Assembly: GCF_024502345.1 (NCBI RefSeq)
Contig: NZ_JALDNN010000001.1
DNA: 64,000 nt
Source: Escherichia coli
Lineage (GTDB): Bacteria > Pseudomonadota > Gammaproteobacteria > Enterobacterales > Enterobacteriaceae
Strand: one strand, 5' to 3'
Position 1 is the first letter of the stretch. Every line of letters begins with the position of its first letter. Both the position numbers and the translations under genes were made by a program. Shown one piece after another: positions 32,118-49,600 of this stretch. The notes below the pieces were generated by a model. The model was not told the origin of the DNA and searched no databases. It was given only the letters and a program-made list of their open reading frames with translations.

Positions 32118-32291
32118 ATGTCTATGCCATTAAGCAATGCCCTTCAGAGTCAAATTATTACAGATGATCACTTCCTTCATCACCCAATAGTCGACAGTGA
32201 GTTAATACGTAAATATGAACGTACACGCCTGGATACGGAAAATATCTATCTTCTGCCTCTTGTTCGTGGCAATAACGGCTTTGTTGAATAA
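32118..32291 (+). pseudogene. Short ORF abutting the IS903-like element; possible 5' fragment of yjiC
   Basis: 57-codon ORF (MSMPLSNALQSQIITDDHFLHHPIV...) running into the IS inverted repeat; identity as yjiC inferred from position only. Confidence 0.3.
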
Positions 32292-33333
32292 ATCAGATTT
32301 CGGGTAAGTCTCCCCCGTAGCGGGTTGTGTTTTCAGGCAATACGCACGCTTTCAGGCATACCTGCTTTCGTCATTTTGTTCAGCGCTCGTACCAGGGCCA
32401 TAGCCTCTGCAACCTGACCATCGTAGTCACGCAGTGTCAGTGAACCCCCGAACAGCTGTTTTACCCGGTACATCGCCGTTTCCGCTATCGAGCGACGGTT
32501 GTAATCTGTTGTCCATTTCCACCGCGCATTACTCCCGGTCATTCGCTGATTAGCCACTGCACGGTTACGGTCTGCATATTCACCGGGCCAGTAACCCGCA
32601 CCTTTTCGGGGAGGGATAAGCGCGCTGATTTTCTTACGCCGCAGTTCATCGTGACATAGCCGGGTATCGTAAGCGCCATCGGCGGCGGCTGACCTGATTT
32701 TCCGGTGGGTTTGCCGGATTAACCCGGGGAAGGCCTCTGAGTCCGTAACGTTGTTCAGCGACAGGTCAGCGCAGATGATTTCATGTGTTTTACTGTCAAC
32801 GGCGAGATGCAGCTTACGCCAGATACGGCGGCGTTCCTGGCCATGCTTTTTGACTTTCCACTCGCCTTCACCGAAGACCTTCAGCCCGGTGGAATCAATT
32901 ACCAGGTGTGCGATTTCACCCCGGGTGGGCGTTTTGAAACTGACATTAACCGACTTTGCCCGCCTGCTGACACAGCTGTAATCCGGGCAGCGTAGCGGAA
33001 CGTTCATCAGAGAAAAAATGGAATCAATAAAGCCCTGCGCAGCGCGCAGGGTCAGCCTGAATACGCGTTTAATGACCAGCACAGTCGTGATGGCAAGGTC
33101 AGAATAGCGCTGAGGTCTGCCTCGTGAAGAAGGTGTTGCTGACTCATACCAGGCCTGAATAGCTTCATCATCCAGCCAGAAAGTTATGGAGCCACGGTTG
33201 ATGAGGGCTTTATTGTAGGTGGGCCAGTTGGTGATTTTGAACTTTTGCTTTGCCACGGAACGGTCTGCGTTGTCGGGAAGATACGTGATCTGATCCTTCA
33301 ACTCAGCAAAAGTTCGATTTATTCAACAAAGCC
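32277..33333 (-). mobile_element. IS903-like insertion sequence (IS5 family), copy A, 1057 bp
   Basis: Terminal inverted repeats GGCTTTGTTGAATAAATC at both ends enclosing a 322-aa DDE transposase; no flanking 9-bp target duplication seen. Confidence 0.85.
32333..33301 (-). CDS. IS903-like (IS5-family) transposase
   Basis: 322-aa ORF identical to the one at 48576..49544; TTG start. Confidence 0.9.
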   Translation of the reverse strand: MKDQITYLPDNADRSVAKQKFKITNWPTYNKALINRGSITFWLDDEAIQAWYESATPSSRGRPQRYSDLAITTVLVIKRVFRLTLRAAQGFIDSIFSLMNVPLRCPDYSCVSRRAKSVNVSFKTPTRGEIAHLVIDSTGLKVFGEGEWKVKKHGQERRRIWRKLHLAVDSKTHEIICADLSLNNVTDSEAFPGLIRQTHRKIRSAAADGAYDTRLCHDELRRKKISALIPPRKGAGYWPGEYADRNRAVANQRMTGSNARWKWTTDYNRRSIAETAMYRVKQLFGGSLTLRDYDGQVAEAMALVRALNKMTKAGMPESVRIA

Positions 33334-33550
33334 CCTTGCCGCATTACTTAATGCTAATATTGAGTTGGGTAATGACCCAATAATTGGTATAGAAGCCTAT
33401 CCCGGTACCGCGGAGATCCATGCAAAAATGGGATATAAAGTTATCCCGGGTGATGAAAATGCACCACTCAAACGTATGACTCTGCAACCGTCATCTCTTC
33501 CAGAACTGTTTGAATTAAAAAATGGTGAATGGAATTATATTGGTAAATAA
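33334..33550 (+). pseudogene. 3' fragment of a gene disrupted by IS903-like copy A (possibly yjiC)
   Basis: Open frame continuing out of the IS right end (...PLAALLNANIELGNDPIIGIEAYPG...NGEWNYIGK*); position between iraD and uxuR. Confidence 0.3.
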
Positions 33551-33690
33551 CTACCAGGAACAATGAGTACTAATATTCAGGTTATACAGATATTTAAACA
33601 ATACCCTGCAATTTACAAAGTAATACTCATTGCGACTTCTTAATTTAAGAAAGCGCAAGGAACGTTTACCCTTGCGCTTATTATAATAAG

Positions 33691-48300: not shown

Positions 48301-48506
48301 GGCTGAACAACAGCCGGCAGGTGGGGGCTGAAATGAATGGCGTCAGTATTAAACAAGCGGGTAACAAAAATGTTGCTGAGCTTAAACTGGGCACTGAAGG
48401 GAAATTTAATAAGAATATGAATTTATGGACCAACGTTGCTCAACAAATAGGTGCTAAAGGCTACAGTGATACAACTATGACAATAGGTTTTAAATATAGT
48501 TTTTAA
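45318..48506 (+). CDS. Autotransporter (type Va secretion) adhesin-like protein
   Basis: 1062 aa; signal peptide (ILCTGQAWA); Gly/Asn/Thr-rich beta-helix-like passenger; Pro-rich PDN linker; C-terminal beta-barrel ending in an aromatic residue (KYSF). Confidence 0.8.
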   Translation: MLKKLITFSAILCTGQAWAACADGAAGPNGVDSATEGSTCDNSGTSYIGNNTAYASGSGSVLNFLPGTVISSKGVAAVYTLAVGGVNSGGSIPGAGATVHAKGDLTVNGNALGSTRSIFIFSGTDAGGKRNSLQIDGNLTATRTGGLYGAVIENTGGDLLVAGKTSLTSNVSDALRNRGDANSTFRGSTSINVSGSNGIFQSGGTVNFNGDLTINTTTGNGIKTSGGVLNARELYIDVKSGVGNGIAISDRGIVNISGGEIITEGKGSTAISLNGGAFSSTDELSILTKSNDSQGIVLSGDAKAILARTDIQTQGDNANGINIINIPTNGVTLYFQDAISIETLGGGSNAIASKNNPANGFVLPAGSMLVTQGENSHGIDMQFESGGGDLTVFELASGANIETHGKNASALFISNDDGEVNIKTASKIIASGAGSDGIEIDSALRGANIINTGEISASDIGINFNTGVQGDVFNAGTISSDNNIAVHFADEINTLTLTSGSQIKGSVLGGAFDDSLILQGTNSEDLSKFNDFNKLVMEGDEWTLNDNGIFSDSYTQKSGVVNLVGTLVTPQVNVEGGTLNLWKSQTWDTLINGGKISLNTTGNVGNTLNVKGDYNGSNGVLVFNTALGSDHSLSDKLVICGNAMGTTSVVVNNAGGTGAHTIDGIELIQVNGTSTDTAFTQAGRIVAGAYDYKLVKGNASGTNTQSWFLTNPDPYNPDNPDNPDNPDNPDNPDNPDNPDNPDNPDNPDNPTIRPEAGSYMANIDTARKIFNSRLEDREGRSENSSMWLRQQGTRTTFYDTSGQSYSATNTYVVQGGGELFSANFSDLDRLGIGMMLAYGNSSNNTGSNRTGYHSKGSVDGYSAGLYATWYQDAGTLNGIYIDTWLQYSWLNGMVKGEQLSNENYKIDGLSASVETGYRKLIYQGANGNVFLIPQGQFIFSGVEADDVKEFNGTHVTTSGNNNIQSRLGVKLSREGTSKIDKGKDKLFTVYAEANWLNNSRQVGAEMNGVSIKQAGNKNVAELKLGTEGKFNKNMNLWTNVAQQIGAKGYSDTTMTIGFKYSF
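47457..47567 (+). repeat. Tandem 9-bp repeat (CCTGACAAC-like; about 12 units) encoding (PDN)n in the autotransporter linker
   Basis: Near-perfect head-to-tail 9-nt repeats with only synonymous CCT/CCG variation. Confidence 0.8.
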
Positions 48507-48543
48507 TCAGCGACAGGGGCATGGTGGCTCGTAGCATCCACCA

Positions 48544-49600
48544 GGCTTTGTTGAATAAATCGAACTTTTGCTGAGTTGAAGGATCAGATCACGTATCTTC
48601 CCGACAACGCAGACCGTTCCGTGGCAAAGCAAAAGTTCAAAATCACCAACTGGCCCACCTACAATAAAGCCCTCATCAACCGTGGCTCCATAACTTTCTG
48701 GCTGGATGATGAAGCTATTCAGGCCTGGTATGAGTCAGCAACACCTTCTTCACGAGGCAGACCTCAGCGCTATTCTGACCTTGCCATCACGACTGTGCTG
48801 GTCATTAAACGCGTATTCAGGCTGACCCTGCGCGCTGCGCAGGGCTTTATTGATTCCATTTTTTCTCTGATGAACGTTCCGCTACGCTGCCCGGATTACA
48901 GCTGTGTCAGCAGGCGGGCAAAGTCGGTTAATGTCAGTTTCAAAACGCCCACCCGGGGTGAAATCGCACACCTGGTAATTGATTCCACCGGGCTGAAGGT
49001 CTTCGGTGAAGGCGAGTGGAAAGTCAAAAAGCATGGCCAGGAACGCCGCCGTATCTGGCGTAAGCTGCATCTCGCCGTTGACAGTAAAACACATGAAATC
49101 ATCTGCGCTGACCTGTCGCTGAACAACGTTACGGACTCAGAGGCCTTCCCCGGGTTAATCCGGCAAACCCACCGGAAAATCAGGTCAGCCGCCGCCGATG
49201 GCGCTTACGATACCCGGCTATGTCACGATGAACTGCGGCGTAAGAAAATCAGCGCGCTTATCCCTCCCCGAAAAGGTGCGGGTTACTGGCCCGGTGAATA
49301 TGCAGACCGTAACCGTGCAGTGGCTAATCAGCGAATGACCGGGAGTAATGCGCGGTGGAAATGGACAACAGATTACAACCGTCGCTCGATAGCGGAAACG
49401 GCGATGTACCGGGTAAAACAGCTGTTCGGGGGTTCACTGACACTGCGTGACTACGATGGTCAGGTTGCAGAGGCTATGGCCCTGGTACGAGCGCTGAACA
49501 AAATGACGAAAGCAGGTATGCCTGAAAGCGTGCGTATTGCCTGAAAACACAACCCGCTACGGGGGAGACTTACCCGAAATCTGATTTATTCAACAAAGCC
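48544..49600 (+). mobile_element. IS903-like insertion sequence (IS5 family), copy B, 1057 bp, inverted relative to copy A
   Basis: Same inverted repeats and identical transposase; truncates an alpA-like gene on its right side. Confidence 0.85.
48576..49544 (+). CDS. IS903-like (IS5-family) transposase
   Basis: 322-aa ORF identical to 32333..33301. Confidence 0.9.
   Translation: MKDQITYLPDNADRSVAKQKFKITNWPTYNKALINRGSITFWLDDEAIQAWYESATPSSRGRPQRYSDLAITTVLVIKRVFRLTLRAAQGFIDSIFSLMNVPLRCPDYSCVSRRAKSVNVSFKTPTRGEIAHLVIDSTGLKVFGEGEWKVKKHGQERRRIWRKLHLAVDSKTHEIICADLSLNNVTDSEAFPGLIRQTHRKIRSAAADGAYDTRLCHDELRRKKISALIPPRKGAGYWPGEYADRNRAVANQRMTGSNARWKWTTDYNRRSIAETAMYRVKQLFGGSLTLRDYDGQVAEAMALVRALNKMTKAGMPESVRIA

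Follow-up and report, generated by a model that had tools for sequence, protein, structure and literature searches.

Chromosomal inversions flanked by insertion sequences (ISs) result from homologous recombination; in Escherichia coli strains, for instance, inverted IS or rrn copies can serve as its substrates. Two intact inverted copies of an IS903-type element around a central segment also make up Tn903, the composite transposon of kanamycin resistance. Besides building composite elements, IS903 produces cointegrates and adjacent deletions (PMC12670165). These deletions are common, proceed via the cointegrate (replicative) pathway, and need both IS ends (PMC11708052; PMC12670165). In E. coli C, a new copy of an IS903-subgroup element was found at a 62-kb deletion without a target duplication (PMC11708052). 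The same arrangement is seen at known adjacent-deletion scars of IS903B (strain G5, ECNB21-M121, and others), where an intact IS abuts the breakpoint and no target duplication is present.

We analyzed a 64-kb stretch of E. coli DNA (hereafter, the window) that carries two inverted IS903B copies. Like Tn903, the locus has two intact inverted copies around a central segment; however, the 15.2 kb at its center belong to the resident chromosome and island and are not foreign cargo, and no 9-bp duplication surrounds the pair as a unit. Compared with IS- or rrn-flanked inversions, the substrate for recombination is present (1057 nt of perfect inverted homology), but the segment seems to stand in its ancestral orientation, and no inversion was seen. 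With respect to the known IS903B scars, the mechanism appears to be no different, and the distinguishing feature is that two scars lie 15 kb apart in opposite orientation. The explanation that we favor, and hold with good confidence, is that these are two separate IS903B copies in a decayed uxu-fim-leuX region, each of which lost its duplication, or never acquired one, because one of its boundaries coincides exactly with the end of a deletion.

Two Identical IS903B Copies in Opposite Orientation

An earlier note on this DNA had described two identical 1057-bp IS903-like elements in opposite orientation, and our repeat search recovered exactly this pair. Copy A (32277–33333, minus strand) and copy B (48544–49600, plus strand) form an inverted repeat whose arms of 1057 nt are 100% complementary and are spaced 15210 nt apart, and they constitute the sole repeat of at least 100 nt in the window. 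Both copies retain intact 18-nt terminal repeats (GGCTTTGTTGAATAAATC) at each end and encode the same 322-aa transposase, located at 32333–33301 on the minus strand in copy A and at 48576–49544 on the plus strand in copy B. The transposase is recognized by the IS5-family model NF033579 (E = 6e-107; 357 bits, cut-off 140), and the DNA of the element is 100% identical to many E. coli copies annotated as “IS5-like element IS903B family transposase.” The length of ∼1057 bp, the 18-bp terminal inverted repeats, the single IS5-family DDE transposase, and the DNA identity all place the element in IS903B. The 9-bp target-site duplication that accompanies a simple insertion of IS903B is absent at both copies; since a duplication is a property of the insertion event and not of the element, the assignment stands.

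The element is matched at 7,171 places in 1,993 of the 5,426 complete RefSeq E. coli genomes. We considered whether the 100% identity of copies A and B is a sign of recent duplication and rejected this, as many unrelated genomes contain precisely this sequence; with the sequence so widespread in E. coli, perfect identity is uninformative on recency.

Absence of Target Duplications

The 9-nt flanks are GGCAATAAC (left) and CCTTGCCGC (right) for copy A and CATCCACCA (left) and TCTCACTCT (right) for copy B. We compared these four flanks in every pairing, both directly and as reverse complements, and the best agreement was 3 of 9 positions. When the IS boundaries were shifted by up to 3 nt, no flank match reached 7 of 9 or better. 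The outer flanks of the whole pair (GGCAATAAC and TCTCACTCT) agree at only one of nine positions. The claim of the earlier note that neither copy has a 9-bp target duplication and that all four flanks differ thus held on recomputation. A past inversion, whether by recombination between the ISs or by duplicative intramolecular transposition, would leave cross-paired flanks. We found none in any pairing of the four flanks, and the swapped or inverted combinations that would carry such a signature restored no duplication.

The DNA between the Copies and Its Collinearity with Relatives

We transferred annotation by BLAST from seven E. coli loci. Left of copy A, the backbone runs from yjiN to hypT and iraD and then into the first 159 nt of yjiC. 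Between the copies, uxuR, uxuB, and uxuA (33691–37404, minus strand) lie in native order and orientation relative to yjiC and are collinear with three of the reference loci (L001, L004, and L005) at 98.3–98.5% identity. The gene gntP is absent, as it is in the lineage of W409 and EH10-18-47. The fim operon is absent as well, with fimH reduced to its last 19 nt after uxuA and before an IS1 (38210–38977, plus strand). This IS1 has no target duplication and links what is left of fimH with internal sequence of a sce7725-family gene. It is a deletion junction, marking a deletion that extends from fimH into the island and that removed the whole fim operon.

Beyond the IS1, the sce7725 and sce7726 genes (38978–42140, minus strand) belong to a W409-type leuX island and match the island of W409 at 99%. 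An IS3 (39416–40673) splits sce7725 and is flanked by a 3-nt duplication, TGT; it is a clean insertion, unlike the neighboring IS1. There follows a mosaic of island remnants (42141–45301), including an IS3-family remnant and a split, truncated hsdM (44128–45254). A 133-aa ORF at 42534–42935 had no family match. The last gene before copy B encodes an intact AIDA-type autotransporter of 1062 aa (45318–48506, plus strand), with its stop codon 37 nt before the IS. To the right of copy B and the truncated AlpA-family gene that adjoins it, a DUF6387 gene, a P4-type integrase, and the tRNA-Leu(CAA) gene leuX (49921–52366, minus strand) form the integrase end of the leuX island, and ahr follows leuX at the right end of our map.

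The whole window (yjiC-uxuRBA-fimH′-IS1-sce7725/6-...-AlpA-int-leuX) is collinear with W409: every block with a W409 counterpart has the same order and the same orientation as in W409. The annotation transfer, together with profile matches, agrees with the interior gene list proposed earlier (uxuRBA, IS1, IS3, and autotransporter). The 15.2 kb between the copies thus follow the E. coli backbone and a W409-type leuX island and, on the available evidence, stand in ancestral orientation.

This arrangement bears on the idea that the two copies work together, whether as a 17.3-kb composite transposon like Tn903 that inserted here or as the ends of a segment that flips in the population. We regard this idea as extremely improbable. 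The pair does share the architecture of Tn903 (PMC12670165), consisting of inverted intact copies with competent outer ends and transposases, and inverted repeats lie at the boundaries as in an invertible segment. However, no duplication is shared by the outer flanks, and the interior, far from being foreign and mobile, opens with the rest of yjiC and native uxuRBA, collinear with relatives. Furthermore, neither the unit nor any of its junctions occurs in the 5,426 complete E. coli genomes, and each of three junctions also gave no match in the collection (GTDB representatives, JGI metagenomes, or both) against which it was run. Three findings refute insertion as a composite unit: the interior follows the order of the local chromosome and the leuX island, no duplication flanks the pair, and the unit was found nowhere else in the genomes searched. 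The term “composite-transposon-like” in the earlier note is therefore apt for the architecture, with inverted IS903 copies as in Tn903, but not for insertion as a unit.

As to flipping, we found no dedicated site-specific invertase gene in or around the segment, where, apart from the 133-aa ORF without a family match, the genes are uxuRBA, the IS transposases, sce7725/6, the hsdM fragments, the autotransporter, and the P4-type island integrase. Moreover, inversion would alter no gene structure, since the crossover would fall inside the IS copies. RecA-dependent homologous recombination could in principle flip the interior, but nothing supports flipping; “invertible” is a generic possibility that, in principle, applies to any pair of 1-kb inverted repeats.

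Copy A Lies at a Deletion Breakpoint within yjiC

Copy A is flanked on both sides by parts of yjiC. The left fragment (32118–32276, plus strand) holds the first 53 codons and is identical at 158 of 159 nt to yjiC of strain 81 (L001, 10842–11000); the right fragment (33334–33550, plus strand) holds the last 217 nt. The two flanks correspond to reference yjiC positions 1–159 and 615–831 in native orientation, and comparison with the reference gene shows that exactly 455 nt are gone at the copy A boundary. The missing 455 nt are found nowhere in the window. Copy A thus sits at a deletion breakpoint within yjiC.

The same flanks weigh on the possibility of an assembly artefact, in which wrong flanks were joined across the identical IS903B repeats. 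Identical repeats of 1 kb are well known to cause misjoins, and the flanks of copy B are neighbors in no reference. At copy A, however, both flanks come from one gene and keep the same orientation with a gap of 455 nt, a configuration that a random misjoin would not create. In addition, no duplication reappears when flanks are exchanged between the two copies, and global collinearity with W409 is kept. We therefore consider an artefact very unlikely overall. The copy A flanks argue strongly against misassembly at that copy, while a misjoin at copy B is an improbable alternative.

Copy B Separates Island Sequences That Continue Differently in Relatives

The left flank of copy B runs on in G5, C236-04A, and others into native, unrelated sequence downstream of the autotransporter. 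The right flank (49601–49754, minus strand) is an AlpA-family gene without its last 53 nt; it matches ET210 (L003) from position 8001 on, the reference AlpA occupying 7948–8154, and runs on in ET210 into the remainder of AlpA. Both flanks part from the references exactly at the IS ends, and neither continuation is found anywhere in the window. Since the missing flank continuations are nowhere in the window for either IS903B copy, A lies at a breakpoint of deletion or rearrangement, and B probably does as well. As expected of adjacent-deletion scars, reference DNA is missing exactly at an intact IS end (455 nt at copy A; at both flanks of copy B). Past IS-mediated deletion or recombination, which the earlier note had proposed, is supported by the 455-nt deletion of yjiC at copy A and by the differing continuations of the copy B flanks in the references. 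In none of the references do the autotransporter and AlpA occur together in an unbroken island; for this reason, both the existence and the extent of a simple deletion at copy B are inferred.

The copy B junctions could instead have come from homologous recombination between IS903B copies at different loci, moving or inverting a larger block. One such copy might, for example, have adjoined the autotransporter in a pheV-type island, and the other might have lain within the AlpA gene at leuX. The genomic setting of the autotransporter lends this some appeal: in the five genomes with autotransporter copies of at least 99% identity whose context we read, the gene lies in the pheV island (5/5), followed by IS1, integrase, and pheV, and in none is it at leuX. 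In addition, the DNA to the left of the autotransporter (42141–45301) is a patchwork from other islands. Nevertheless, the autotransporter is transcribed in the direction of the integrase and tRNA, as it is in pheV islands, and its placement requires no inversion. None of the patchwork boundaries (42140, 43236, and 45302) coincides with an end of IS903B. Furthermore, modules are routinely shared among pheV, pheU, and leuX islands. Recombination between distant loci would imply reciprocal junctions, CATCCACCA+TGCCAATTC... or ...CCATTCATCAA+TCTCACTCT, at another IS903B copy. We judge this explanation unlikely and continue to prefer a separate insertion and deletion at copy B. A comparable case exists in strain G5, where this autotransporter is cut short by a separate, duplication-less IS903B that connects it to gss.

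Searches for the Junctions and Their Precursors

Using flank queries of 2 kb and 300 nt, we found none of the four junctions in the 5,426 complete RefSeq E. coli genomes. A single match at 82%, in strain G5, was rejected: the autotransporter is joined there to an unrelated IS903B in non-collinear fashion, and no junction is shared. Exact 38-mers covered three of the four junctions; there was no match in GTDB representative genomes (A-left and B-right) or in JGI metagenomes (A-left and B-left). With no junction shared, neither orientation of the segment was seen in another sequence of these sets. A precursor in which IS903B retains an intact duplication at one of the four sites was likewise not found in the complete E. 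coli genomes, the GTDB representatives (A-left and B-right), or the JGI metagenomes (A-left and B-left) searched. Because no such relative was found, we can only infer the order of events, that is, insertion followed by deletion or both at once.

Insertion and Adjacent Deletion as the Probable Origin of Both Scars

We examined how often IS903B lacks a duplication elsewhere, using a sample of 18 copies in other E. coli chromosomes that represent 17 distinct sites. A perfect 9-bp duplication was present at 12 of the 17 sites, and none was present at the other 5. Two of these five have one flank in common and differ in the other, a pattern suggestive of stepwise deletion. With a base rate near 0.3, the probability of two adjacent duplication-less copies is ∼0.09 if they are independent. 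Two duplication-less IS903B copies 15 kb apart are unremarkable and compatible with chance, although a coupled event is conceivable. The uxu-fim-leuX region is clearly tolerant of loss, as the adjacent IS1 marks the deletion of the fim operon.

In the course of events that we favor, one IS903B would have inserted in yjiC, and 455 adjoining nt of the gene would have been removed. The other would have inserted just downstream of the autotransporter in the leuX island, with the island DNA from there to codon 51 of AlpA subsequently or concurrently lost. The likely route would be intramolecular transposition of IS903 by the cointegrate pathway, resulting in an adjacent deletion, and recombination between two nearby direct IS903B copies would give the same outcome. 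The two insertions would be independent, each with a one-sided IS-mediated deletion that was later or simultaneous, and the opposite orientation of copies A and B would be happenstance.

It is also conceivable, although doubtful, that each IS903B was captured into a double-strand break in one step with its deletion, such that a duplication was never made. Such an event was reported, and this mechanism proposed, for the IS903-subgroup element in E. coli C (PMC11708052), and both copies here lie exactly at deletion breakpoints. However, all 14 comparable IS150 cases in the same study were multistep (PMC11708052), and the end product of capture is the same as that of insertion followed by adjacent deletion. 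We give an equally slim chance to the wider proposition that either both copies were captured in one step at deletion breakpoints without transposase-made staggered cuts or one coupled rearrangement made both scars. If true, one-step capture would provide a natural-isolate example of a contested mechanism, twice within 17 kb.

With two separate insertions and adjacent deletions as the preferred explanation, the locus adds a further instance of known IS behavior where an island region is decaying, and its significance beyond the annotation of this genome is small. A pair of perfect inverted repeats of 1 kb, separated by 15 kb, is an assembly hazard and a possible substrate for neutral inversion. 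The locus shows IS903B, IS1, and IS3 eroding the uxu-fim-leuX region in one E. coli strain, with the outcome that yjiC is disrupted, gntP and the fim operon are missing, and defence-type genes of the island are split.

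An intact autotransporter beside the second IS903B copy

The AIDA-type autotransporter gene that ends shortly before the second copy of IS903B is intact in the window (45318-48506) and encodes 1062 amino acids. Among complete RefSeq E. coli genomes, we examined five relatives at ≥99% identity and, in addition, 2021CK-01361; in these the gene is located in pheV islands and is interrupted by IS3, IS5, or IS903B. Of the five, the loci of strains G5, C236-04A, ECONIH5, and CAVP773 were read, and that of 2273-PO3 was judged from the hit table only, as was 2021CK-01361. BLAST alignments of the gene break at a tandem array, where the window carries about 90 nt extra. 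This array (47439-47591) consists of 11 units of the 9-nt sequence CCTGACAAC, which encodes a Pro-Asp-Asn repeat. The same pattern search found no run of at least two units in G5, C236-04A, or CAVP773.

Among IS903B copies sampled from other E. coli chromosomes, those of QDFD216 (locus L020) and D53-1 (locus L022) have a common right flank, CCTCAGCAT, beside a YagK/YfjJ gene. Their left flanks differ, and neither copy has a target duplication. This pattern looks like successive deletions outward from one fixed IS end.

Gene remnants and losses around the leuX island

Upstream of the autotransporter lies a type I restriction-modification hsdM gene (44128-45254) that is broken into two ORFs and cut short at about 45150. 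It shares 99.5% identity with the hsdM of an ssrA-linked island in strain PapRG-04-4; there the gene is followed by hsdS and hsdR, neither of which is present here. In strain ET210, the idnK-idnD-idnO-idnT-idnR cluster lies between ahr and yjgR, but the window has about 90 nt in its place (53582-53671), an absence that is probably a known lineage polymorphism.

The sce7725/sce7726 gene pair (38978-41991) adjoins a RES-domain gene in strain W409, with a Kiwa-like gene nearby, a defence-island setting. In the window, IS1 truncates sce7725, and an IS3 copy flanked by a TGT duplication interrupts it. The IS1 (38210-38977) links the final 19 nt of fimH directly to the interior of this sce7725-family gene of the leuX island, and no 9-bp duplication surrounds it (38191-38986). 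gntP is likewise missing (37801-37856). Because IS1 fuses the 3′ end of fimH to the inside of an island gene, the whole fim operon and all DNA up to the island are missing at this locus.
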